From a phage, in sequence record OZ346212.1: DNA of 64,000 nt. One strand, written 5' to 3'. Positions 1,521 to 63,955 of this stretch are shown piece by piece. Under the pieces are notes generated by a model that saw only the letters and a program-made list of their open reading frames with translations, was not told where the DNA came from and made no database searches. The first letter of the stretch is position 1, and each line of letters begins with the position of its first letter. Made by a program: the position numbers and the translations under genes.

Positions 1521-3944
1521 ATGAGCATGTGGTCGTTCGACTTTGAGTCATCCGGTTTGCTGGAAGACCCAGATCTTTATTATCACTGCGGCCTGTTTAA
1601 AGAGCTGAATAAGAACCGTTTTATGCTGTTCCTTCCTCTAAATGACCGCACACACTACTCCGAGGAGGATATAGAAAAGGCTAAGAACTTCATTCTGGCA
1701 AAGAAAACTCTTTATAAAGATTTTGAAGTTCGCATAGCAGATTTTTCAGAGTTGGAAGGTTGGCTTACAGGAAATTCTGACTGGTCACCAACAGCTTTGA
1801 ACTGCCATAACTGCTACAGTTATGACTTTATGCTGATGGAAAGATTATCTGGTATTCATTTTGATATGTTCCGTGATCCTAAGTGTATGGGGACTATCAA
1901 CGATCACCAGGTTAACCTGTTTGATACGTTGGCGATGAGCCGAATCTTGTGGCCTGATCGCCCTTTACCAAAAGGTTGTCCGGACTCTGTATTCAACCCG
2001 GTTACTAAGAAAATGCAGCCTGTTGGTCCTCACGGCCTTATGGCATGGGGCTACGCCCTTGGTAACCAGAAAGTTCAAATTGATGACTGGCGCGATCTTC
2101 CGTTATGGAAGTATGTGGATCGTGTATTTGAGGACGTTATCATCCAGGAGCTGCTCTGGAAAGAGCTGGTAGCGGAATCAAAAGGTGTATTCTACGGCAA
2201 ATCTGACATGCAGAACTTTATGTACGATCCTGCCAAAGAGAAGCCGAAAGGGTTCAAGAAGATCACCTGGAAGAACGCATTACGTCGAGGCATGTTGCAG
2301 CACTTCCTGATGGAGCTGCAGGCCCGTCAGGGTGTATACTTCGACATAGATGGGGCTATTGCTTTACGTGACCGCTGCGATGCGTGGATGAAAGAGATCG
2401 CTGATCGTGTTGAACCACAACTGCCTTTAAAAGAGCTGTCAATGTCTCAGCGGCCCAAGTTCCCTGAAAAGCCGTTTAACCAAGATGGGACAATCTCTAA
2501 TAATGGTTGGAAATGGTTAAAAGATAAGCTTGGCTATCCTGTGGACATGAGTGCTTTAGAGTTCAAAGCCCCACCTAAGCGAGCATTTACCTCTACAGGA
2601 GATGTCAGTAAGATGGGGATAAAATGGTGTGAAGAGATGGGCTGCAAAGACCACGATAAGATGGCTGATTTCTTGAGAGGTTATATTAAGGGCACCTCCA
2701 CACCACAACCTTTACCTAAAGAGCTGATGGATCAGGCAATAAGCGATCTGCAACAGAAGCGAATGCCTGACTGCAAGATACCTATGAAAATCAGCAATCA
2801 GGACGACATTAAGCGATACCTGATCAGTGCTGGTTGGCTTCCGACAATGTGGAGAACTAAGGATGTAACTAAGGACAGCAAGAAGAAAGCTCTACCTGAT
2901 GCAGATGTTGATGCACGAGTATATGCATACATGGACGAGCTTTTAGAGTCAGAGTATTGTGACCTAATTATCAACTTCTGGAACAAAACTGATGCTAAGT
3001 TTCAGACAACAGTGCACAAGTTCCGAAGCTTTCCTAACTCCGAAAGGATTAAAAAGGAAGTGTTCGGGAAAATACGCAGAAAAGCCAGGGCACTTATTAC
3101 TTCTCCGCAACTGAAAGATACGTTTGGACACCTATGTCCGAATCTTGAAAAATTGAACGGAGAGATGGCTAAAGATATCGTCTTGTGGTTATCATTGCGA
3201 AACCGCAGATCGGTCCTTGATCCAATCAAGGAGGATAAGGTTGATACTGGTCTTCTTAATCACCCACGTTTGAAGATTGACCATAAGCTTCCTGCTAAAA
3301 GCTCTGGATTAACAAACACTTCCCGACAGAAACACAGTATTTGTGCAAACATGCCTAAACCATCTCCTAAAGTGGTTATGGGTAAAGAGATGCGTAGCTT
3401 GTGGGGTGTTCCTCCTGGATACTTTGAGATCGGTATTGACGGGTCCAACTTAGAGCAGCTTATCGGGGCTTGGGGTGCCTTTGAGTTCGACAACGGCTTG
3501 TACTATGATGTTGTAAGTAACGGGGACGCACACCAAAACAATGCTGAGGCATATACAAAAGTAGCAGGCAGAGAGGTGTCTCGTAACGACGGTAAACCTA
3601 TCACGTATGGGGTTATGTACGGGGCACAAAAAGATAAAGTTGCAGATATGCTGGATATCTCCCCAGAGTTGGGGCAAAGGGTGATCGATGCACTTTGGGA
3701 TGCCAACCCAGGTCTTAAGGGGCGCAAAGAGGATCTGGAGAAATTCTGGGAAGCAACAGGTAAGAAGTTTATCTACTCTTTTGATGGTCATGCTATCTGG
3801 ACCCGATCTAAACACTCTTTACTTAATGCATACCAACAAAATGGCGGCGCATCGTTGTGTGACTTAGTTGGGATACTCATGCACCATCAAATGGTGAAGC
3901 GTGGGTGGTACGATGAAGGTGTTCGTCGTATTATCTATTACCAT
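1521..3944 (+). CDS. DNA polymerase family A, exon 1
   Basis: RBS AAGGAG before ATG 1521; Exo I FDFESSG; motif B KPITYGVMYGAQ; ORF ends at the His that should start motif C (HDE). Confidence 0.85.
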
Positions 3945-4786
3945 AAATAACATTGTGGCTTCGTGCAGTGATGCACGTCGAAAACCTCTTTAATTGACGG
4001 GAAGGCTAAGTTGACTTTTACACCTAAACATGGTAAAAGCTCAATATGCTAATCCGCAGCGAAGACTAAAGGGGTGTAGTTAAAATGGCTAGATCAGTTG
4101 AGTATCACGGATATACCGTGTTTGATGATGGAACAATACCTTTATCGAAACGTGATCATACAACAATGTTTTGTTTTGATAATGGTCGAGGTTACCTTTG
4201 CGTAACCATGTTCATCGAGGGGAAGCAGTGCACAAAAGGTGTCCACCACTTGGTTGCTGAATGCTTTGTATCAAACCCTGATCCTGAAAGGCTCACATGG
4301 GTGAACCATAAGGACGGAAACAAATACAACAATGCATACTGGAACCTTGAATGGACCACCCCTGGTGGAAATATCAAACACGCTTATGATAATGACCTCA
4401 GAGTAAGGCCAGTCGGTGAGTATAATGCCAACGCTGTACTGACCGAGGATGAGGTAACGGAGATTTGCGAACTGTTACAAAGTGGTTTACGACAATGCGA
4501 GATTAGGGATCTTGGGTATCCTTATGAGACGGTCAGAGCCATAAAGCAAAGAAGACAGTGGAAACATATCTCTAAAAACTACACCTGGTAGTAACGTTCA
4601 GAGACTATCGAAAGCATAGCGCCAACATAAATTGGTGCGAAGAAGCGAGTAGAGTAGACCAGCAAGTGCGGTCGAAATGGGAGGTGCCTTGGTAACAAGG
4701 TAGTGAGATAGTCCGATCCATACAGGAAACTGTATGGCTGTGCACGTAATGGTGCGGGGTAGCTTAACGACCTACCTGAACTATTG
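3945..4786 (+). mobile_element. group I intron interrupting DNA polymerase motif C
   Basis: Exon 1 ends in T3944, intron ends in G4786; P/Q/R/S-like elements at 3994, 4051-4060 (AATCCGCAGC), 4596-4610 (GTTCAGAGACTATCG), 4705-4714 (GAGATAGTCC); contains HNH ORF. Confidence 0.7.
4085..4591 (+). CDS. HNH homing endonuclease (intron-encoded)
   Basis: RBS AAAGGGG; HNH signature NHKDGNKYNNAYWNLEW; located inside intron. Confidence 0.8.
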   Translation: MARSVEYHGYTVFDDGTIPLSKRDHTTMFCFDNGRGYLCVTMFIEGKQCTKGVHHLVAECFVSNPDPERLTWVNHKDGNKYNNAYWNLEWTTPGGNIKHAYDNDLRVRPVGEYNANAVLTEDEVTEICELLQSGLRQCEIRDLGYPYETVRAIKQRRQWKHISKNYTW

Positions 4787-18037: not shown

Positions 18038-18063
18038 GGCGGCATATTTGCCGCCTTATTGTT
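18038..18063 (+). terminator. intrinsic terminator
   Basis: GGCGGCA-tattt-GCCGCC followed by TTATTGTT. Confidence 0.6.
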
Positions 18064-18091: not shown

Positions 18092-18463
18092 ATGGAATTT
18101 ATTATTTTGGCTGTATTGGTTGCCTTGTTTAACGCCTGGATCGCTGGCAAGATGGGAAGATCCGCCTTTTTATGGTTTATTATATCTATTTTCCTGGGGG
18201 TGGTTGCAACTATTGTATTGGTTATCCTTGCAATTGTTGACAAGGGGAATAATAGAAAGGGTAAAGTATTTTCAGACCTGTACGACGCTCAAACGTTTGT
18301 CAACGCCTATTATAGTGATCTTCCAGTCTCCCTACGTTGCAGCCTTGCACAACAGGTTTTCGATGAAGCTAAAACCAGAGATCACGCCCATGAGATTTGT
18401 TTAACTGAGGCGGATCGCCTATTTGAGAGGAATAGAAAATATGTGGACCAGCCGTTTAAATAA
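18092..18463 (+). CDS. membrane protein
   Basis: Start moved to ATG 18092 after RBS AAGAGG; two hydrophobic helices. Confidence 0.5.
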   Translation: MEFIILAVLVALFNAWIAGKMGRSAFLWFIISIFLGVVATIVLVILAIVDKGNNRKGKVFSDLYDAQTFVNAYYSDLPVSLRCSLAQQVFDEAKTRDHAHEICLTEADRLFERNRKYVDQPFK

Positions 18464-30773: not shown

Positions 30774-31244
30774 CTACTTAAATAGTAGTTCAAAATAGTG
30801 CAAAATTAACAGAAGTTGAACTACACCTAGTGCAACGGCGAGTATGTTAATCTTAGAATCGAAAAACTTCTTAACTTTTACTCTAAAAGGTTCCTTAATG
30901 TCCTTTACGATCCTATCTATAGATGACCTCATATCTCTGATTACCATCCTGAACATTAAAGACGGATGCTCCCCCATCTCCGTAACGGAATCGAAAACAT
31001 ACTCTCTTCGGTCATAAGGGCCGCCAGCTCTGCGTATTAACCTCTCCACAGAGACCTCGAACGTCACACCTGTAACGTAATCATCTATAACAAGTCGTGA
31101 CGGGTCTTTACCTTTACTATCAAGAGGTATCAAAGTTATCTTTCCAGATTTTGTTAAAATTTCCCCTTTTTCAAGCAAGGTGTACCAATGCTCTCTGCCA
31201 AGACTGTTGAGGCACGTTTTTACATATTTAACAAACATCGTCAC
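30774..31244 (-). CDS. hypothetical protein with C-terminal TM helix
   Basis: ORF track. Confidence 0.5.
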   Translation of the reverse strand: MTMFVKYVKTCLNSLGREHWYTLLEKGEILTKSGKITLIPLDSKGKDPSRLVIDDYVTGVTFEVSVERLIRRAGGPYDRREYVFDSVTEMGEHPSLMFRMVIRDMRSSIDRIVKDIKEPFRVKVKKFFDSKINILAVALGVVQLLLILHYFELLFK

Positions 31245-31509: not shown

Positions 31510-31662
31510 TCAATAAACATGGCTTGAAACACTGGAAGGTCTCCCTAAATTAACGCACCATTTTAAATACATGCTCTTTTCCCATAAAGGTGCCTGGCTA
31601 AGATCTGCGTAGAACGCAATCTCTTTAAGAACAGTATAGATAGTTTTAGGTGCGGTCTCCAT
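31510..31662 (-). CDS. hypothetical protein
   Basis: Start moved to ATG at 31662 after RBS AGGAAGGAGA. Confidence 0.35.
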   Translation of the reverse strand: METAPKTIYTVLKEIAFYADLSQAPLWEKSMYLKWCVNLGRPSSVSSHVY

Positions 31663-31873
31663 CCCTACTCTCCTTCCTGATATTCTTGTAGTAATCAACT
31701 AGGCACATTATTACGATGAAGATAACAACAGGCCAAAAAGGTGCAGCAGTGATGATGGTGATAAAATCATCAAACTTCACCCTTCGTCTGGACACGATGC
31801 ATACACCTGTCAAGAATACCGCTGTTATAACGGACATTACCAGGTAACCTATTAGCACAACATTTATACTCAT
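31646..31873 (-). CDS. two-TM membrane protein
   Basis: Two hydrophobic helices, charged C-terminus; holin-like topology but no adjacent lysin. Confidence 0.5.
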   Translation of the reverse strand: MSINVVLIGYLVMSVITAVFLTGVCIVSRRRVKFDDFITIITAAPFWPVVIFIVIMCLVDYYKNIRKESRDGDRT

Positions 31874-51436: not shown

Positions 51437-51765
51437 GCTTCCTCGTCCTCCTCTCCTTCATCAGGAGCATAAGCCTTATCTTTGAACAAGACGAGAGAGC
51501 AAAGCTTAACATCTGTTTCCACACTGGTGAACATGCATAACCGCTCGCCCTCAATCAGCTCACAATCCTCTTTTAAAACAGCAGACCATACACGGTCATC
51601 TGCGTAATCATCCGTGTACAGGATGTATGAAATGGTGTCATCTTCATACAACCGCCACATACCTGTGGCAACAACGAATGTATTTTTTGTTTTAAGTGTC
51701 CCTGTTGTGTGATCATCCTCAAAAACAGCTTCCATAATTGCGTTATCTACAGCATTTTTAGTCAT
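51433..51765 (-). CDS. hypothetical protein
   Basis: ORF track. Confidence 0.5.
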   Translation of the reverse strand: MTKNAVDNAIMEAVFEDDHTTGTLKTKNTFVVATGMWRLYEDDTISYILYTDDYADDRVWSAVLKEDCELIEGERLCMFTSVETDVKLCSLVLFKDKAYAPDEGEEDEEA

Positions 51766-52904
51766 CAGATTGCTCCAACATTTCTAAGAACGTTAACAAG
51801 TTTTGTCTGGTCATTAAATGTCCGCTTCATATACAAACAGTCAAAAATTATACTCATCCATTGACCTACGGAAATTCTACGATCAATACCATTGAAGTCA
51901 GTATACTTAACAACACCTTTCGGGAACCACTTCTTGTACTGATCAATAATAGCCACCCACATCTCCTTTGGAGTGCTGCACTGAGACAGTAGGTAGAATG
52001 CTGAGGCATCCCCGAACTTACCCTTACCGATAAGTCCTTGATACGGCTTGATGTTGTCAGCAGAGTCACCACACAGCATTTGGTATCCGAAGAACAGCAT
52101 CCCGTAACCGCCAACCTCTCCATTGGGCTTCATGAAGATGTTCCCCATACCGTTATCGATCAGCATAGGGGTTTCCCTTACAAAATCTCCCTTATCGTTT
52201 CGCATGGGATCGAACACAAGCCCCGGTAGTGTTCTTTGGTCCTTATCAATAGAGATAATAAACTTGTTGAACTTACCTGTTTTTTGGTAGTGGTTCCAAC
52301 CTTCAAATTGCTGGATAGCTAACCAGTCGTCAGCCTCGATACCGTTGATCACTTGAGCATTATACTGCTTTTGGAGATACTGTCTTGCATCTCCAAGCAG
52401 CAGTGGTCGAAGAGTATTGTTACGGTTGGCTTTATATCTTTCCGGCATGGGAAGATCTAGTCTGAAATTACCTGTGCCTCCAAGTACCCCCACGCACCGA
52501 TCTTCCGGAATACCGAGATAATTAAGGACTGCATTAGCTTTACACTTAATTGTGTGCAAGCAGTTCTCTACAGGATCAGGGGTTTGGATATCCAAGACAT
52601 CGAAATCTTCTCGTGTCCACGGAATAAACTCCTTGCCAGCCTTTTTACATGCAGCTTCACGGTTGGTATTCTCAGCTTTTAACCAACCACCAACGGTGTT
52701 CTTCTGCCGCCCCCAGAACTCTGTTCGTGTTTTAAACATCTTCTTACGTCCGGAGGCTTTGTGTGTTACCTCAATTGTCCTTTTTTCACAACTTGCTGCA
52801 GCTTGATATGCAACCTGATCGAAGTCATAATAAACTATAGCGTCAGGTTCAAGAAGATCAGCCAGACAATCTATGGACTCAATAAGTGGATATTCTCTAC
52901 TCAA
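51765..52904 (-). CDS. 5'-3' exonuclease / flap endonuclease
   Basis: GIEADDWLA and LCGDSADNIKPYQGLIGKGK match the Pol I 5'-nuclease / T4 RNase H family. Confidence 0.7.
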   Translation of the reverse strand: MSREYPLIESIDCLADLLEPDAIVYYDFDQVAYQAAASCEKRTIEVTHKASGRKKMFKTRTEFWGRQKNTVGGWLKAENTNREAACKKAGKEFIPWTREDFDVLDIQTPDPVENCLHTIKCKANAVLNYLGIPEDRCVGVLGGTGNFRLDLPMPERYKANRNNTLRPLLLGDARQYLQKQYNAQVINGIEADDWLAIQQFEGWNHYQKTGKFNKFIISIDKDQRTLPGLVFDPMRNDKGDFVRETPMLIDNGMGNIFMKPNGEVGGYGMLFFGYQMLCGDSADNIKPYQGLIGKGKFGDASAFYLLSQCSTPKEMWVAIIDQYKKWFPKGVVKYTDFNGIDRRISVGQWMSIIFDCLYMKRTFNDQTKLVNVLRNVGAI

Positions 52905-53205
52905 AGACCCTCCTGTTAGTTATTCTGCAAGATGGTTGGATGCTGTAATGGAATGCATCATCACTCTCTGCAATAAGTGACTCAACATCCCAATACTTTT
53001 CAAAAAGGAACGGATTAGACCCCCAGTGGTGGGTTATTTTCATCAAGGAGTCTGGTATCATATAACCACAGATCTTAATTACATCGCCAGGTTGAATTGT
53101 GTTTTCATGAAGGTTGCTTGCCTTCTTCAGAATCATACCTTTATGATTCTCGTTTGCATACAACTGGACAATATCTTTATCTTCAACAATAAAAATTTTA
53201 AGCAT
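52897..53205 (-). CDS. hypothetical protein
   Basis: ORF track. Confidence 0.5.
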   Translation of the reverse strand: MLKIFIVEDKDIVQLYANENHKGMILKKASNLHENTIQPGDVIKICGYMIPDSLMKITHHWGSNPFLFEKYWDVESLIAESDDAFHYSIQPSCRITNRRVFE

Positions 53206-53264: not shown

Positions 53265-53558
53265 TCAAGACTTTTTAGTCTTTCTTGGAGAGCTTTTTGT
53301 TGATCTTTTCCTTTTGTGGTAGATTCCAAGTGCAGCGTTTTCTTGGGCGCACGTTTTAACAGTTCTCAGAGAAGAACTTTCAGCTTTAGGCAGGTTTAAC
53401 TCCCACCAACCGAGCCAGTAAAGTTCTGATTCCGACAGCTGCTCAGATTCAGCCTTCCGATACAATGATTGCATACCTCTAATGATGTCGTCCAGAGGTG
53501 TATCGAATACAAAAGCTGTCTTATCGAATTTCTCTTTTACAGGTCTCTTAGCCATCAA
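53265..53558 (-). CDS. hypothetical protein with basic C-terminus
   Basis: ORF track. Confidence 0.45.
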   Translation of the reverse strand: MMAKRPVKEKFDKTAFVFDTPLDDIIRGMQSLYRKAESEQLSESELYWLGWWELNLPKAESSSLRTVKTCAQENAALGIYHKRKRSTKSSPRKTKKS

Positions 53559-54063
53559 GGTAACCCTCTATCCACGAAAAGTCAGTCTTCCATTCTGGAA
53601 CTTTACTAAGCTCACGCCACTCTGCAAAGCAGTCTCGGTAATACGCCTCTGCCATACTCTTGGTGATCTTATTCACCTTAGCCAACTGATTAACTGCCTG
53701 AGCATACTTTCCACGGATATTTGCTAACCCAGGATGCACCGATGTGTGACAATCCGGGCACAGTGCTATCAGTCCGACAAGCCGGATCACTCCCTCTTCG
53801 AAAGTGTAAAGTTCATGACACTCCACTGGGTGTTTGCTGCCTTTACCGCCGCACACCTCACAAGTGTAGTTGGCTTCTCTATAGCACTTCTTACGTATCT
53901 TATCCCACTCACTCTTCTTCACAGCGTTTCGGAGGTTATTATACCAAGCTGTTTCTGGGATCAGTTGCACAATAAGCCTGCGTTCAGACTTCATTAAACG
54001 TCCGTCTTCCACGTGTTCTCCCTCATTCAAAGAAATGGGTGCGAGGGCAGGAACCTGCCTCAC
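53548..54063 (-). CDS. zinc-finger protein, possible HNH-like nuclease
   Basis: CEVCGG...ECHELY...CPDCH. Confidence 0.4.
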   Translation of the reverse strand: MRQVPALAPISLNEGEHVEDGRLMKSERRLIVQLIPETAWYNNLRNAVKKSEWDKIRKKCYREANYTCEVCGGKGSKHPVECHELYTFEEGVIRLVGLIALCPDCHTSVHPGLANIRGKYAQAVNQLAKVNKITKSMAEAYYRDCFAEWRELSKVPEWKTDFSWIEGYLDG

Positions 54064-54229
54064 CTTGTTTCACAAGCTCGTAGAGCTCACCTTGACTTGT
54101 CTCATAAAGGCAAATACGTTTACCATTGTCCCGATATACATCGACAAGATACGCTGTTTCACCTGCAAACACGACACCACAGGCCAGACATGCTACCATG
54201 AACAAAATTGCCAATAGAAAATCTTTCAT
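54023..54229 (-). CDS. small signal-peptide protein, possible lipoprotein
   Basis: MKDFLLAILFMVACLACG; directly downstream of endolysin. Confidence 0.45.
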   Translation of the reverse strand: MKDFLLAILFMVACLACGVVFAGETAYLVDVYRDNGKRICLYETSQGELYELVKQGEAGSCPRTHFFE

Positions 54230-54292
54230 GGTTAAGCCCTCCTAAACATTTTATGAGGTAACAATACCACGTCCGTGTGGTTATGTCAATGA

Positions 54293-54763
54293 TCAATCAA
54301 GGACAACACCGCCTGCCTTTTTAAACACCTCGATCAACTTCTCGATCTTCTGTTCATGCTGACCATATCCAGCACCAGGTAACGAAGCCCAGCGGGAACG
54401 GCATTTATGGATAGCCTCGTGGATACGCCCTTCGTCAATGTCGGCGAGAGCCTTGCACTCACGGATCAGTTGCAACGCAATCTTGTCCTGACTGGCGGGG
54501 CCAAAATCTGGCAATCCTAACTGTTCCATGTAGTGTTTAGCAAACTTCTCCAAAACCTGGTAACGACCAGCAGCGGAGGAGGTAAGTTTAGCATTTAGCT
54601 TAACGTACACACCTGGATGCTTGCTGTAATCGCTAAACAGCTTGCCACCAACTATGACATCGTATCCCCGATCCTTAGTGGGTTGCCTACCATTATCTGT
54701 GCCTTCCGAATATGCGATCATGTCCAAGAAAGCTTTTCGTTGAACATTTTTATCAAGTTTCAT
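54293..54763 (-). CDS. endolysin (lambda R-type lytic transglycosylase)
   Basis: NVQRKAFLDMIAYSEGTDNGRQ...DVIVGG...SAAGRYQ...WASLPGAGYGQ closely parallels lambda R as I recall it. Confidence 0.9.
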   Translation of the reverse strand: MKLDKNVQRKAFLDMIAYSEGTDNGRQPTKDRGYDVIVGGKLFSDYSKHPGVYVKLNAKLTSSAAGRYQVLEKFAKHYMEQLGLPDFGPASQDKIALQLIRECKALADIDEGRIHEAIHKCRSRWASLPGAGYGQHEQKIEKLIEVFKKAGGVVLD

Positions 54764-54886
54764 TTTTCATACTCTCCAGTTTACTCATAACTAACACGAT
54801 CAACAACACTACACAGTGTGGTTATGTAGGTGCCGATTGAAAACCATCATTCAATTGGCTACCGTTACCTACTGAACCTTCCTACA

Positions 54887-56170
54887 TCATTCAAGCACCT
54901 CCCAAGTGTCTGGGTTAACATTTCGGACGCAGATACCGACAGGGAATTGGTAATTGTTGTCTTCTGTCCTTGCTTGGTATTTGAAGGTGACAAACTTGCC
55001 GATCATTTCCTGCATCCTGTCATAGCTACGCTCCTCGTGCGTGCCTTTCATCTTCATTTTAACAACAACACCTTCCTTGTCAACACAGATAAGAACACCT
55101 TCATCATTCTTATCTTTCTCAACGTCAATAACTTTCACCTCTGCGTCGTTGAACTTTTTCCATTTCAATGCTTCAGATGTTCGCTGACCATACTCATATT
55201 TACCGCAGAAATTACGCATGATAGTACCTTCATATCCTTCGGACATGAATATACCAACAGATTCTTCGCAATGATCAACTGTGTACGCAAGCTCTGCGTC
55301 AACAACCTTGATATGATCAAGCATCAGAGTGGTAACGGTATCCTCTGCATCCATAAGATCCTTGCAGCGTCCAGACTCTGTTTCTGGATCCCACCACACC
55401 TTGTCGCTAGGAATATCAAAAATGTGATACTCCAGATCGTAGCTACAGTATCCACCGTAACGCAAATCATCACGAACAGGCTCAACATCGACAGGAATAT
55501 CTACCTTGTTGAAGTTTTTGTATGTTGATAAGCCTGCCTTAATTGCTGCATGACGGCGTTTTTTATCTGCCTCATAGTCTTTATCGATCTCGGCCTGAAT
55601 CTCTTCCTGTGTGCGCCACCGTTTAGCAAGAGACACTATTTTCTGCAAAGGAAGACCATGAATGTATAGTTCCCCATCAAGTTGTTTAATCCCAGTGGTA
55701 GAATGGAAAGAACGAAGTTGCTCTAAAAGCTTTCCTTGAATAGGGTAGGACTTATTACCACGGGAAATAAATTTAGGCTCACCATTTTGGAAAACAACAA
55801 GCAGACGAAGGCCATCTAACTTACGCAAGATCCAGCAAGGTAATTTAAGTGCCTTGCCACGCTTCAGGTAGTCATGCACCAGCATAGGTAAAAGATCAAC
55901 ACCCTGCTCGCAATCTTCCATGTTTTCAACATACCCCAGACGGACTTGTTTTTCCCACTTGCTGATAGCCTCAAGCTCGGCCTGTTGCTCAGCTGTAGTC
56001 TCGTTGGCACGACCTACGTTTTTAGGTGTACATACCGTCTCTTTGTACTGCAATTTACCGTCAAGCTTGCCAAACTCTACGATAACCTTTTCGCCATCAG
56101 TGAATACTTTCCACTGTTGGTAGCTGCCATCTTTGTTCAGTGCGTACAGTGTTGTTTTGATTTGATGCAT
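54887..56170 (-). CDS. ATP-dependent DNA ligase
   Basis: Motif I RKLDGLR, motif IV EGTIMR, motif V LKWKKF. Confidence 0.8.
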   Translation of the reverse strand: MHQIKTTLYALNKDGSYQQWKVFTDGEKVIVEFGKLDGKLQYKETVCTPKNVGRANETTAEQQAELEAISKWEKQVRLGYVENMEDCEQGVDLLPMLVHDYLKRGKALKLPCWILRKLDGLRLLVVFQNGEPKFISRGNKSYPIQGKLLEQLRSFHSTTGIKQLDGELYIHGLPLQKIVSLAKRWRTQEEIQAEIDKDYEADKKRRHAAIKAGLSTYKNFNKVDIPVDVEPVRDDLRYGGYCSYDLEYHIFDIPSDKVWWDPETESGRCKDLMDAEDTVTTLMLDHIKVVDAELAYTVDHCEESVGIFMSEGYEGTIMRNFCGKYEYGQRTSEALKWKKFNDAEVKVIDVEKDKNDEGVLICVDKEGVVVKMKMKGTHEERSYDRMQEMIGKFVTFKYQARTEDNNYQFPVGICVRNVNPDTWEVLE

Positions 56171-56796: not shown

Positions 56797-57510
56797 TTAA
56801 ATATACTCTGTTACATCCTTGAAGCTCGAAGGCTTCATAATCTTACCTTTACTGTCAAGGAATATAATAACTTTATTACCGTTGTAGAACTCCTCTTTAG
56901 CAACGAAACCTTCGTAGCGACCACCAAAACGACGCTCAAGATCTTCAATCTCTAACTCTATGAGCAATTCAGTAGACATATCTGCACTGGCACCGTGAGA
57001 ATATCGTAGATGGTTGATCCGTGCAAACTTGCTGTCATTAGATTTGAGAACCTTCCGCATCATCCCACACACATCGCCGCGAAGCTGGAACAGCAAAGCT
57101 GTTGACAACTCCGCTAAGCGGTAAGCTGACGCTCTTTGCTTGGATGTGTTTTTCGCAGCGATCAGTGTATCATAGAACTCACCGATCTTGAACTTAAGAC
57201 CTCGTGGATTATCAAACAGGTTTGACCACTTTTCGTGATTATCATTAACAAGATAAGCGGCATAACTTGTGACAACGTGAAGATCGCAGGCCTCTTTTAG
57301 CAGGTGATCTCCACCATCACCTTTCTCCAGCTCTTCCAAAACCTCATTGAACTCTTCCTCAATGAAGCTAAGCTGTAATTCGAATGGTGTGTATGATTTT
57401 TTCACTTTAGCTGCCACACGGTTCCAGTTTTCCACCCAGTTGGCAGACCAAAGGTAGTTTTCAGGCTGAGACAGTTTTTCCAGGTTGTCGATCAGTTTAG
57501 TATTCAGCAT
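56797..57510 (-). CDS. hypothetical protein, possible MazG-like NTP pyrophosphohydrolase
   Basis: EEEFNEVLEELEKGD...LLKEACD; weak. Confidence 0.5.
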   Translation of the reverse strand: MLNTKLIDNLEKLSQPENYLWSANWVENWNRVAAKVKKSYTPFELQLSFIEEEFNEVLEELEKGDGGDHLLKEACDLHVVTSYAAYLVNDNHEKWSNLFDNPRGLKFKIGEFYDTLIAAKNTSKQRASAYRLAELSTALLFQLRGDVCGMMRKVLKSNDSKFARINHLRYSHGASADMSTELLIELEIEDLERRFGGRYEGFVAKEEFYNGNKVIIFLDSKGKIMKPSSFKDVTEYI

Positions 57511-57523
57511 TAAAGGTCTCCTT

Positions 57524-58285
57524 TTAAAGTTCCATAAAGTTTTCTACAGTTTCAATAAATGCTTTATCAGAGAAAGCGTCAACAGCACCGTTAAACCATA
57601 CAGGGATCCCGCGATCCTCATATTGATAAAGGTCGCTACGTGAAATGCCACTCCCATCTGCACTCTGCGAGTCATACTTGTTTACAATCAGCAGTTTTGT
57701 GCCTTTACAAGTAGCAGGAAACAATTCCCAGTTAAAATTAATAACTGTGTTAGAACAACCTACTAGGATCACCATATCATTGCTTGTGAGAGATGTCAAC
57801 AGGTCATACATGTCTGTATACTTAGGAGCAACCTCACCGAAGAACACTACATTGGGCTTAACCCAGGTATACTTGCCTGTATCTACCTCCGTGTATCCGA
57901 TATTTTTAATTACATCATTACCTTCAGCATCTTCGTAGGTGATTTCAGGCAAATACCCGTGGACATGTAAAATATCTTCATGTTTTACACCAGCACGCTC
58001 CAGCAAATCATCTACATTGGTGGTAAGGTTGATCACACGACCAGACCAGCGGGAATACCACTCAGCGATCCGAAGATGTGCAAGGTTAGGATCAACACTG
58101 CCCAGAGCTACACGACGTGCATTGTAAAAGTCATGCACCTTATAGTAGTTCTTGGCAAAGGTGTGGATGTTGCACACCTCATCGATGCTGAAATTCTCCC
58201 ACATTGCAGTGCTACCAGATCGGAAAGTGGGAATACCAGATTCAGCGCTCAAACCAGCACCGGAGATAATAATCAGTCGTCGCAT
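57524..58285 (-). CDS. Sir2-family (sirtuin-like) NAD-dependent protein
   Basis: N-terminal GAGLSAESGIPTFRSGSTAMW matches sirtuin GAGIS..SGIP.FR. Confidence 0.75.
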   Translation of the reverse strand: MRRLIIISGAGLSAESGIPTFRSGSTAMWENFSIDEVCNIHTFAKNYYKVHDFYNARRVALGSVDPNLAHLRIAEWYSRWSGRVINLTTNVDDLLERAGVKHEDILHVHGYLPEITYEDAEGNDVIKNIGYTEVDTGKYTWVKPNVVFFGEVAPKYTDMYDLLTSLTSNDMVILVGCSNTVINFNWELFPATCKGTKLLIVNKYDSQSADGSGISRSDLYQYEDRGIPVWFNGAVDAFSDKAFIETVENFMEL

Positions 58286-58293
58286 AAGTGTCC

Positions 58294-58644
58294 TCAGTAG
58301 ATGTTTTGTTTAATCTCTATTCCAAACTTCTTGAATGAGTCAGCAGCAAGCATAAATTTACGAGCTGCCGATGGATTAGAAGTATGCACGAAAATAATCA
58401 CGTTGTCAATAAGTGGTGGCTTTCCGAATACAAGTTTCTCCTCTAGCGCAGAGAAGCAGTCGTACCCTTCAAGCACTTCACCTAGATCATTGTCAAAATA
58501 CCACTCAGATACGCGTCTGTAGAGCTTTCTCTTATCATTAAGAAAATCCATAAACTCAGAAGAATTCTTTAGCCACAGAGCGTCTGGGAGTCCATAATCT
58601 GACGGATCTCTAAAATCATCAAGCCACACAATCCACTTCTTCAT
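58294..58644 (-). CDS. hypothetical protein
   Basis: ORF track. Confidence 0.5.
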   Translation of the reverse strand: MKKWIVWLDDFRDPSDYGLPDALWLKNSSEFMDFLNDKRKLYRRVSEWYFDNDLGEVLEGYDCFSALEEKLVFGKPPLIDNVIIFVHTSNPSAARKFMLAADSFKKFGIEIKQNIY

Positions 58645-59576
58645 TGCATATAGTCCTCGTTGTGGAAATAGTAGTCCAGTATCTCACGACGCTCCTGCTC
58701 TAATAAGCAATTCCACACATCTTCTGTATAGTTGCTACGAATAAATTTTACCATACCGTAAAACTCTTCGTCAACACGTTTAAAGATATCATCATCCCAA
58801 ATCTTCCAAGCTTTACCCCTCATTACTGCCTTCCGTGCCAGATAGTATGGAGACTTGATCTTCAGCTGCAGATCATAAGGGTAGTAAGGCTTACGAATCA
58901 TATACCCTTCACCTCTTGTTTCTGCAGCTAATTCTTTTGCATAGCTGAACGGAATTTCACGCACAGTGTTAGGACGTTTTGCACCAAGGTATTTGGCAAT
59001 CCCATCTAAAGCTGCTTCTGGTAGCATTATTCCAGAATCATTATATCTGCAACCTATCAAATATGCGCCATGGTCTTCTTGAACAATATGCGGATCTGAA
59101 GGGTGACAAATTTCAAACATGAATGTCATGTTTTCATTGCCCATAACCTTCTTGATAAGATCTAAATTACCACATTGCTCTTGGATGGTTTCCTTTGCAA
59201 GGTTACAATATGGAGAATCAAGAGACCCGGTTGTTGAGAACAATAGGTCACCTTTATGAGATGATACCACACCAAGGAATCCGTTCTTTTTCTCTACCGC
59301 AGTCACAAGCTTATTGTCAGGCAGGTTGGTGGAGTTTTCTCCCAAGTTAAACACTTTTGTGAAGGGCCATGCCACAACATTTCCTTCATTACCTACAACA
59401 ATGCCTCGGCACTCCAGTAAACGAGGGGACAAATGCCATAAATTGTTGTAAAATACTTTTCTAGCATATTTATAGATCTTTAACCCGAGATCTGGGTAAT
59501 ACCTACTGGTTACAAGACCTTTGTCAACTAGGTCGTCTGCATTAAAATACTTCATTATATGTTCCTCATTTGTCAT
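58641..59576 (-). CDS. RNA ligase (nucleotidyltransferase superfamily)
   Basis: Motif I VEKKNGF (KxNG), motif IV EGYMIRK, motif V LKIKSPYY; alternative start at 59555 has the better RBS. Confidence 0.6.
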   Translation of the reverse strand: MTNEEHIMKYFNADDLVDKGLVTSRYYPDLGLKIYKYARKVFYNNLWHLSPRLLECRGIVVGNEGNVVAWPFTKVFNLGENSTNLPDNKLVTAVEKKNGFLGVVSSHKGDLLFSTTGSLDSPYCNLAKETIQEQCGNLDLIKKVMGNENMTFMFEICHPSDPHIVQEDHGAYLIGCRYNDSGIMLPEAALDGIAKYLGAKRPNTVREIPFSYAKELAAETRGEGYMIRKPYYPYDLQLKIKSPYYLARKAVMRGKAWKIWDDDIFKRVDEEFYGMVKFIRSNYTEDVWNCLLEQERREILDYYFHNEDYMQ

Positions 59577-61047: not shown

Positions 61048-61122
61048 ACCAGTAAAAACTTAAATATCTGTACTATAAGGATTCGTATGTTTTATGTTCG
61101 CCATGGAACGGATACTATTAAC

Positions 61123-61203
61123 TGTCCGTGATACGGACACTACTGTCCGTCACGCGGACACATCTGCCCGTAATACGGACACTAACTGTCCGTGATACGG
61201 ACA
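61123..61203. promoter_or_regulatory. array of four 17-bp palindromic sites (TGTCCGTgatACGGACA) at 21-22 bp phasing
   Basis: Sites at 61123, 61144, 61165, 61187; followed by a ~120-bp AT-rich tract. Confidence 0.65.
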
Positions 61204-61329
61204 CATAAAGAATATAACTAAAATAACTAAATAATAAAAAATAAAAGATCTAGTACTTATGGTACTAAGTACATATACTTAACTTATGTAGAATATACTA
61301 GATCCTAAGTACCATGTTTTAAATTTATT

Positions 61330-61600
61330 ACTTACTATGGGCAGTGTCGGCCCTTCATTGGCACTCGCCTACGAGGGGGCGAGATGCCGGGCCTCCTTGG
61401 CGCACACAATAACAGAAGTTCATACATGCAGGTCTGTTAACATGTGTGGGAGCGAAGCGATAGCGCAGGCCAAAGGCCGAGCACTGATGTGGACCACCGA
61501 CGAAAGCTTGCCAGCGCCGTAAGGAGTCGGTTGAGAGTCTCCCGCGCGAGCTTGGATGAAGTTTATGTGTGGAAACTGACAAGAAGGCCCCTAAATCGCT
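61330..61600. ncRNA. GC-rich island, candidate structured RNA
   Basis: Local GC jump; only overlapping both-strand ORFs without RBS; several short hairpins. Confidence 0.25.
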
Positions 61601-61708
61601 CCACAGCTATATAAACTATACCAGGTAATGCAATCGCACCAGTTTGATAGAAAAGCTCGTTACAAAGCGATACAGTGAGTTTTTCTATAACTTGAAGAGG
61701 AGGCAGCT

Positions 61709-62805: not shown

Positions 62806-62829
62806 GGTTGTTTTCGTGTATCATGATGA

Positions 62830-63092
62830 ATATCCAATTTAAAGATGAATTTGATGGCTTTATCTCCGGATGCTTTGAAACAGGGTTCGGAGAAGGCTGA
62901 GTTCCCCTTAGAGGGCTTGATAGTGCACCACACTTAAAATGGTAGGGGCAGCCAGCACATGACGATGTGACCCCAGCCAACCTGTAATAAGGTCGAGCCA
63001 AAGTGCGGTAATGGGCTCTGGTAACCCACTTGTTGGGTCTTGCTGGTCCAGGACGCTGGACAAGTCGCAGGGAATACCACCCTGCGGCGAAC
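62830..63092. ncRNA. GC-rich island, candidate structured RNA
   Basis: GC-rich, overlapping short ORFs on both strands, no RBS. Confidence 0.2.
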
Positions 63093-63584: not shown

Positions 63585-63659
63585 GCCCTGTTAGCTTAGT
63601 GGATAAAGCAGCGGCCTTCTAAGCCGTTGACACTGGTTCGAGTCCAGTACGGGGTGCCA
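63585..63659 (+). tRNA. tRNA-Arg (anticodon TCT)
   Basis: Cloverleaf folded by hand: acceptor GCCCTGT/ACGGGGT, D-stem GCTT/AAGC, anticodon loop CTTCTAA, T-loop TTCGAGT, encoded CCA. Confidence 0.8.
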
Positions 63660-63663
63660 AATT

Positions 63664-63750
63664 GGGGAGTTATCCCGTAGAGGTAGCGGTGTAGACTGTA
63701 AATCTATTGTCATTGCGACTCGGGTGGTTCGACTCCACCACTCCCCACCA
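63664..63750 (+). tRNA. tRNA-Tyr (anticodon GTA)
   Basis: Acceptor GGGGAGT/ACTCCCC, anticodon loop CTGTAAA, long variable arm, T-loop TTCGACT, encoded CCA. Confidence 0.8.
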
Positions 63751-63864
63751 AATTTATATTTTTAGATGCATAAATAATACAGATAATGGCATTGATATTT
63801 ATCGTCGTTTATACTAGTCACTAACTGCTCGAAAATCAGTGTCATTATCAGTATTATTTATAAA

Positions 63865-63955
63865 GGAGGGTAGGGAGCAATGGTGCTCAATCGGTCTTGA
63901 AAACCGTCCCGTTGAGGATGACTCGATGATGGTTCGATTCCATTACTCTCCGCCA
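63865..63955 (+). tRNA. tRNA-Ser (anticodon TGA)
   Basis: Acceptor GGAGGGT/ACTCTCC, anticodon loop CTTGAAA, long variable arm, T-loop TTCGATT, encoded CCA. Confidence 0.7.

Follow-up and report, generated by a model that had tools for sequence, protein, structure and literature searches.

A lambda-R-type endolysin in the dispersed lysis layout of an rV5-like phage, and the predicted secreted mini-protein encoded beside it

How does a phage that encodes its endolysin among DNA-metabolism genes, with no holin alongside, bring the enzyme to the murein, and does the small protein encoded next to it take part? The question is raised by a 64,000-nt stretch of phage DNA (record OZ346212.1; the whole stretch is called the window here), in which the gene for a lambda-R-type endolysin is followed on the minus strand by an open reading frame (ORF) for a 68-residue protein. 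From the letters of the window, the original prediction had recognised the enzyme, placed it between a DNA ligase and a 5'-3' exonuclease with no adjacent holin, suggested that its downstream neighbour carried a signal or lipobox-like N-terminus and might be a spanin-like or periplasmic partner, and located the only holin-like protein 23 kb away. Two genes, and the predicted processing products of the second, are at issue:

54293..54763, minus strand: soluble lambda-R-type endolysin, 156 residues, orthologue of rV5 gp89 and LysECP26
54023..54229, minus strand: predicted secreted-protein precursor, 68 residues, orthologue of rV5 gp90 (phrog_4641, E=5e-28)
54164..54229, minus strand: predicted signal peptide, residues 1-22, from the family alignment
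54026..54163, minus strand: predicted mature protein, 46 residues, from the family alignment

We favour, with a probability of roughly 0.8, a joint reading in which a soluble R-type endolysin acts within a dispersed, T4-like lysis layout and the 68-residue product is the precursor of a Sec-exported mini-protein that is not part of core lysis. The position of the endolysin gene is real, ordinary and already described, being the known dispersed lysis-gene layout of Vequintaviruses. Sequence matches place the window in an rV5-like virulent myophage of the genus Vequintavirus: over the 1.5 kb around the endolysin gene, Escherichia phages naswa and magaca match it at 100% identity and about 80 further rV5-like genomes at 95-99%.

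The earlier identification of the enzyme was borne out over its full length. In phmmer searches against the PDB, it matched the lambda lysozyme entries 1AM7 (E=3.4e-56, query residues 4-154 on chain residues 3-153) and 3D3D (E=4.6e-56), and it also matched phrog_90, labelled 'endolysin' (E=3e-56). Glu20 (AYSEGTDNGRQ) aligns with the catalytic Glu19 of lambda (AWSEGTDNGRQ), indicating that the catalytic residue is kept; the N-terminus (MKLDKNVQRKAFLDM) is charged, and a hydropathy scan found no transmembrane segment and no signal or signal-arrest-release (SAR) sequence in the protein. As judged from these alignments, the product is a full-length homologue of lambda R and the orthologue of rV5 gp89, and by homology a lytic transglycosylase. 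The assignment to this family rests on the PDB and PHROG matches, because scans of Pfam-A and NCBIfam gave no match at E<=0.01. The precomputed Pfam column is empty for the endolysin orthologues too; the rV5 authors reported pfam00959 for gp89 in 2013, with an older Pfam release, and the recent paper on the related phage CF01 reported no endolysin. Pipelines that rely on domain models can miss this enzyme.

The enzyme is 97% identical, in a protein comparison, to LysECP26, which was purified by its authors (2020) and found to lyse Gram-negative cells treated with ethylenediaminetetraacetic acid (EDTA) at ng/ml doses and to be toxic in BL21. The R-type gene is moreover kept at 95-100% identity in about 120 genomes. 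These observations bear on the condition that the original prediction had set for its own refutation, namely that the present copy is a remnant without activity, with a canonical holin-endolysin-spanin cassette at another place in the genome. We found no supporting point for such a remnant: the ORF is intact and full-length, its catalytic Glu is kept, its product is nearly identical to an active purified enzyme, and no cassette is known for the phage group. In several independent annotations, made for rV5-type genomes or for close relatives of these, no lysis cassette is reported, and the annotated 50-kb stretch of MiataMamis contains no lysis-gene product names. This explanation has next to no likelihood left; within the reach of sequence and published biochemistry, we count it as refuted.

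The surroundings of the gene also agree with the original prediction, in that the endolysin lies among DNA-metabolism genes and no holin is adjacent. From the ORF list and a hydropathy scan, no ORF with a membrane segment flanks it on either strand, and the contiguity of holin, endolysin and spanins that defines a canonical cassette is absent at this locus, where the neighbours are the ligase, the 68-residue protein and an HNH endonuclease. The 2013 rV5 paper called gp89 'an obvious lysin' and compared the dispersed lysis layout with that of T4; the 2019 paper on phage LL12 assigned the endolysin (LL12 gp90), the inner-membrane spanin (i-spanin, gp66) and the outer-membrane spanin (o-spanin, gp65), and did not identify a holin. 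The LL12 spanin genes lie directly upstream of terL, gp66 having a transmembrane domain at its N-terminus, and gp65 a canonical lipobox (LLCGC). The window ends inside the tRNA cluster that precedes the spanins, which by synteny would begin about 0.8 kb past its 3' end; genes for three tRNAs (Arg, Tyr, Ser) are found at 63585..63955. We also considered LL12 gp67, encoded directly upstream of the i-spanin, as a holin and rejected it, as it has no hydrophobic segment. The isolated position of the endolysin, the absence of an adjacent holin and the distant candidate with two transmembrane segments were thus all published in 2013 and 2019 and are already known.

Where, then, might the holin be? 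Two ORFs in the window encode small proteins with two transmembrane segments:

31646..31873, minus strand: 75-residue protein with a charged C-terminus, orthologue of rV5 gp129, transmembrane segments at residues 3-21 and 40-58
18092..18463, plus strand: 123-residue protein with a C-terminal tail of about 70 residues, phrog_13090, function unassigned (a longer ORF starts at 18059)

The first is the ORF noted earlier, and a transmembrane scan confirmed it on the minus strand; it is not, as had been proposed, the only holin-like ORF of the window, since the second also encodes two transmembrane segments. Both have the features of a class II holin as far as sequence can tell (two transmembrane domains, small size, a charged C-terminus), and neither gave a useful match in Pfam-A or NCBIfam scans. 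The 75-residue protein is 88% identical to rV5 ORF129, shows 55-100% identity among relatives, and is listed as 'putative holin, 2 TMD' in Table S3 of the 2013 rV5 paper. Identity to the 123-residue protein is 90% or more in each of the 119 matching records, and the label 'putative holin' is attached to its orthologues in the BASEL records MZ501093, MZ501111, MZ501083 and MZ501102. The same label therefore falls on two different ORFs in different records of one genus, so that the annotations conflict, and a search of the literature returned neither an experimental holin assignment for a Vequintavirus nor an experimental test of either candidate. The gp129-type ORF is followed, only about 400 bp downstream, by a gene for a 156-residue protein with a single, C-terminal transmembrane segment (30774..31244, minus strand; tail-anchored) that matches phrog_7821, 'virion structural protein'; mass-spectrometry evidence exists for its rV5 orthologue, gp133.

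The R-type enzyme is not the only murein hydrolase of these phages. According to the paper on phage CB7, a SleB-like murein hydrolase with a signal peptide occurs in all genera of the Vequintavirinae, and in Certrevirus its gene is overlapped at the end by one for a 65-residue protein with two transmembrane segments. The same paper states that CR3_087, a homologue, has been implicated in lysis and that expression of the CB7 protein, CB7_83, is toxic. We searched the window for a SleB-like gene and for a CB7_82-like gene with two transmembrane segments and found neither. Vequintavirus genomes do carry a SleB-like gene, with 47% identity to CB7_83, and we located the following copies:

L009 2938..3438, phage isim: SleB-like hydrolase with signal peptide and Pfam PF07486 (Hydrolase_2), directly upstream of rIIA-rIIB and about 68 kb from the endolysin gene
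L021 16012..16769, phage ChuuTotoro: SleB-like hydrolase, with an overlapping gene for an 80-residue protein with two transmembrane segments
L008 447..1171, phage CB7: SleB-like hydrolase, its 3' end overlapped by a small gene encoding two transmembrane segments

By these sequences, phages of this group possess two murein hydrolases, one cytoplasmic and one exported. One possibility is that lysis depends chiefly on the conserved, Sec-exported SleB-like hydrolase encoded beside rIIA/rIIB, the R-type endolysin being a recent acquisition with an accessory role; this would explain the absence of a canonical holin. The signal peptides of the SleB-like proteins in CB7, ChuuTotoro and Vequintaviruses agree with this idea, as do the data on CR3_087 and CB7_83 and the small overlapping gene in CB7 and ChuuTotoro; furthermore, the type of cytoplasmic endolysin varies by genus, being R-type here, GH19 in ChuuTotoro and a T5-like peptidase in CB7. 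However, a cytoplasmic-type endolysin is kept in every lineage examined, the R-type gene is strongly conserved across its roughly 120 genomes and its product, in the form of LysECP26, is highly active, and in Vequintaviruses no gene for two transmembrane segments follows the SleB-like gene, rIIA coming directly next. On balance, we consider a purely accessory role unlikely and retain the R-type enzyme as a lysis endolysin.

We then turn to the second half of the question, the 68-residue protein. It is 98.5% identical to rV5 gp90, which is unannotated in rV5 and appears in later records as 'putative membrane protein'; Pfam-A and NCBIfam scans gave no useful match, and a profile search against PDB sequences with the family returned nothing credible, with no match at E<=0.001. 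Its N-terminus is hydrophobic (Kyte-Doolittle 2.86 over residues 4-22). We searched for the family in a collection of 5.8 billion proteins and, with an exhaustive hidden Markov model (HMM) search, in 1.84 billion cluster representatives. The HMM search yielded 27 representative clusters, all but two of them stand-alone proteins of 57-91 residues, and the 19 representatives retrieved for inspection had the same layout as the window ORF. Judged by these searches, the family is small and confined to phages.

An alignment of 29 members allowed the features of a signal peptide to be read directly. The N-terminal 19-35 residues vary freely and always divide into an n-region, a 13-25-residue hydrophobic stretch and a c-region. 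The residue at -1 is Ala, Ser or Gly in all 29 members (22, 4 and 3, respectively), and that at -3 is small or aliphatic in all of them (A 18, V 4, S 3, C 2, T 1, L 1); 22 of the n-regions are net positive and 7, among them that of the window copy, are neutral. The mature part is conserved, at 43-48 residues with exactly two cysteines, C40 and C61 in window numbering, both invariant. AlphaFold2, run on the family alignment, modelled a helix at residues 2-16, within the signal, followed by four beta strands (predicted local distance difference test, pLDDT, 80.6), and comparison of this model with BFVD retrieved uncharacterised phage proteins only. A conserved signal peptidase I site behind a variable N-terminus, with small residues at -3 and -1 and a tripartite signal, is the signature of a Sec signal peptide as read from sequence, and not that of a lipoprotein or of a membrane-anchored holin. 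The proposal that the downstream product carries an export signal is therefore upheld by the family alignment.

The same alignment bears on the other part of that proposal, a lipobox and a spanin-like role. An o-spanin-like or other outer-membrane lipoprotein would draw on Cys14, which in the window copy and its closest relatives stands in a loosely lipobox-like context (FM[VAT]AC). Both Cys14 and Cys17, in the signal region, are found only in these closest relatives and are missing from most members, the family conserving a signal peptidase I site instead; no lipobox cysteine is invariant among the 29, no i-spanin ORF adjoins, overlaps or is embedded in the gene, the genuine spanin pair lies beside terL with the LLCGC lipobox in LL12 gp65, and the mature part is, in the model, beta-rich and not proline-rich. 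We therefore reject the identification as a spanin, and a lipoprotein of any other kind seems very improbable. A holin is likewise unlikely, as a holin should keep a conserved transmembrane domain in the mature protein, and what the 29 aligned sequences contain is a variable hydrophobic stretch followed in every case by a predicted cleavage site.

Does the constant company of the two genes nevertheless betray a joint function? They stand side by side, some 63-68 bp apart, in three lineages, Vequintavirus proper and two divergent lineages of metagenome contigs, and their products diverge in parallel, with identities for endolysin and small protein, respectively, of 100 and 98.5%, 80 and 74%, and 61-64 and 61%. 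In the most divergent lineage (L011 and L012), the pair is found after genes for the exonuclease, a 109-residue ORF and a phosphoesterase and before RuvC, not directly after the ligase. Conversely, ChuuTotoro-like Serratia phages and related contigs encode a homologue of the small protein (33-40% identity) in the ligase-to-exonuclease block with no endolysin within 10 kb. The complete ChuuTotoro genome contains no R-type endolysin detectable by tblastn (E<=1); its lysozyme-like gene encodes a GH19 enzyme and is situated 13 kb downstream, between glutaredoxin and PhoH. Where context exists for distant family members, they have a ligase gene upstream or a NADAR gene as neighbour, and no R-type enzyme. 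A specific partnership is unproven, because the small protein also occurs in phages without an R-type endolysin.

DNA-level matches to unrelated 45-kb Salmonella siphoviruses cover the endolysin gene only, at 67-77% identity. The simplest history suggested by these comparisons makes the small secreted protein the earlier occupant of the block; a probable horizontal transfer later placed the R-type endolysin gene immediately upstream of it, and the pair has been co-inherited since. The possibility that the R-type enzyme replaced a SleB-like hydrolase in place after the ligase was considered and rejected: the corresponding slot in ChuuTotoro encodes a 152-residue protein with an N-terminal transmembrane segment, and its SleB-like gene is elsewhere.

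The small gene may also be transcribed on its own, as suggested by a candidate promoter in the intergenic sequence:

54261..54289, minus strand: predicted sigma70-like promoter between the endolysin stop codon and the 68-residue ORF, from a consensus scan

This element consists of TTGACA, a 17-nt spacer and TATTGT, with TGn in front. The pattern TTGACA-17-TAnnnT with TGn recurs at the equivalent place in all three lineages despite diverged spacers (L013, about 3940..3975; L012, about 3945..3980; also L011). Separately, the 12-mer ACATAACCACAC is identical upstream of the 68-residue ORF (54275..54286) and of the endolysin gene (54816..54827), on the minus strand in both cases. The window contains no further match; 0.31 were expected, and 3 of 100 shuffles gave two; the sequence upstream of the endolysin gene is not conserved in L013 or L012. 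As a regulatory element, this 12-mer was set aside as statistically too weak.

The 68-residue protein might still be a component of lysis timing acting with the endolysin, either as a signal-anchored (N-in, C-out) holin or antiholin like T4 T or RI or as a periplasmic regulator or inhibitor of murein hydrolysis. The adjacency in three lineages and the parallel divergence, which persist even where the pair has relocated, would fit such a role, as would the 19-residue hydrophobic stretch of the window copy, the fact that no holin has been identified in the phage group, and the opposite charge of the acidic mature peptide and the basic enzyme (isoelectric points of 4.8 and 9.3, rV5 Table S3). However, the hydrophobic segment is not conserved and has just 13-15 residues in several members, the signal peptidase I site is present in all 29, the family occurs in ChuuTotoro with its distant GH19 gene and no R-type endolysin, distant members have no neighbouring endolysin, and the small gene has its own predicted promoter. 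We consider this role improbable, and keep to an exported protein outside core lysis.

The joint reading can be put as a sequence of events. During the replication phase, folded endolysin would build up in the cytoplasm; both this build-up and the enzyme's dependence on a holin are suggested by the lack of a signal or SAR sequence. Being harmless there, the enzyme could be transcribed with the replication genes, the timing of lysis being set elsewhere. A separately encoded, distant holin would then open the inner membrane and let the enzyme reach the murein, as with T4 e and t, and the i-/o-spanin pair beside terL would subsequently break the outer membrane. The small gene, expressed from its own sigma70-type promoter, would yield a Sec-exported precursor, which signal peptidase I would cleave behind residue 22 (VFA|GE), leaving a 46-residue acidic, beta-rich periplasmic mini-protein with a probable Cys40-Cys61 disulfide. 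A core lysis component is unlikely; the mini-protein most likely acts on the envelope, in superinfection exclusion or in modulating periplasmic murein hydrolysis, and this is inference only.

Several points weigh against this joint reading. Holin dependence is deduced from the missing export signal alone, and no phage of the group has a demonstrated holin; the presence of the SleB-like hydrolase means that the R-type enzyme may not be the sole or main lytic enzyme, and the enzyme itself escaped the Pfam-A and NCBIfam scans. With its 19-residue hydrophobic stretch and an n-region that has no net positive charge, the window copy of the small protein could in part remain membrane-anchored, and the close subgroup has a weak lipobox-like sequence, FMVAC, at residues 10-14. 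A fold search of the AlphaFold2 model against the PDB was uninformative, the best hits (E 0.039) being generic small beta-barrels such as ribosomal L2 and Mop. Sigma70-like matches are not enriched in the region (11 found, 11.1 expected), and the adjacency of the two genes in three lineages also fits a functional link.

The most novel form of that link would be that gp90-type mini-proteins regulate lysis or murein hydrolysis, for instance as periplasmic inhibitors of the SleB-like hydrolase or of host lytic transglycosylases, or as signal-sensing, antiholin-like factors. We regard this as unlikely. If true, it would help to explain lysis timing in large myophages that have no recognisable holin, and the endolysin linkage in three lineages would be functional, not historical. 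The rV5-like group is widely used as a source of therapeutic and biocontrol phages. The main observation itself adds nothing past the rV5 (2013), LL12 (2019) and LysECP26 (2020) papers; what is new here is the description of the 68-residue family, a minor refinement of annotation, for which 'secreted, predicted disulfide-containing 46-aa mini-protein precursor' would be a better label for gp90-type ORFs than 'putative membrane protein'.

The minus strand carries every gene between about 22 kb and 59.6 kb, as seen from ORFs and GC skew, including the endolysin gene with its neighbours, the 68-residue ORF and the 75-residue ORF with two transmembrane segments. This block corresponds to rV5 genes 82-163, described in the 2013 rV5 paper as a long transcription unit. 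Around the pair it contains the following genes:

54887..56170, minus strand: ATP-dependent DNA ligase, immediately upstream of the endolysin gene with a 123-bp spacer (Pfam PF01068 and PF14743; phrog_114, E=3e-83)
53548..54012, minus strand: free-standing HNH (homing-type) endonuclease, start codon uncertain (phrog_5200, E=4e-72)
52897..53205, minus strand: 102-residue 'transposase-like' ORF (phrog_14449)
51765..52904, minus strand: 379-residue exonuclease, so named from phrog_107 (E=6e-71) and database product names only

Downstream of the endolysin gene, the order is the 68-residue ORF, the HNH endonuclease, a 97-residue ORF, the 'transposase-like' ORF and the exonuclease. The placement of the endolysin between ligase and exonuclease, as originally proposed, stands; the exonuclease label depends on phrog_107 and product names, its relatives being annotated exodeoxyribonuclease or RNase H, Pfam, NCBIfam and PDB sequence searches gave no match, and the 5'-3' polarity that had been claimed found no support. 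The LL12 annotation has a 465-nt coding sequence at the HNH endonuclease locus. The spot between the 68-residue ORF and the exonuclease gene is prone to indels, with additional insertions in FV3, rV5_ev147 and JEP1, and ECP26 and L013 have an additional 72-residue DUF7205 ORF.

Upstream of the ligase gene, the minus-strand regions 56797..58285 and 58641..59576 contain two tandem genes that are Sir2-like in the LL12 annotation, with Pfam SIR2 found in the L013 orthologue of the second, and a gene for a T4 Rnl1-type RNA ligase, labelled 'RNA ligase and tail attachment protein' in LL12. The DNA from the divergent promoter region to the tRNA cluster includes stretches (61050..61700 and 62810..63030, plus strand; about 0.2-0.65 kb) that lack a convincing ORF; the rV5 map shows a 'non-coding' box that may or may not equal this region. 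Finally, about 19 'Campylobacter phage' records (MG0656xx: C14, A112b, D1 and others) contain rV5-type sequence with 96-100% identity to the window region, and are probably mislabelled or derived from mixed lysates.

How does the locus compare with known systems? With lambda R, the window enzyme shares its length (156 against 158 residues), an end-to-end alignment, the Glu of the AxSEGTD motif and the absence of a signal or SAR domain, and its transglycosylase chemistry is assigned by homology to lambda R only. Unlike lambda R, which sits in the S-R-Rz/Rz1 late cassette, it follows a DNA ligase in a unit of replication genes with no holin or spanin nearby. In this respect the window resembles T4 (e, t, the spanin pair, rI and sp), whose endolysin gene is likewise apart from the holin and spanin genes, among early or middle genes, although no T-like holin has been recognised. 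T4 also encodes small periplasmic proteins, the antiholin RI and Spackle, which inhibits the tail lysozyme and gives superinfection exclusion. The 68-residue protein has no sequence or fold similarity to either, its model being beta, with four strands. The two-component spanins of the rV5 family (Kongari 2018; LL12 gp66/gp65) include an o-spanin that is likewise small and has an N-terminal export signal; the 68-residue protein differs from them in having no conserved lipobox cysteine, no i-spanin partner and a different genome location. The SleB-like hydrolases CB7_83 and CR3_087 are a second murein hydrolase of the same phages, implicated in lysis, but belong to an unrelated family (PF07486), are Sec-exported and are encoded outside the window. 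The closest counterpart is the rV5 gp89/LysECP26 locus, with an orthologous endolysin and rV5 gp90 downstream, from which the window shows essentially no difference.

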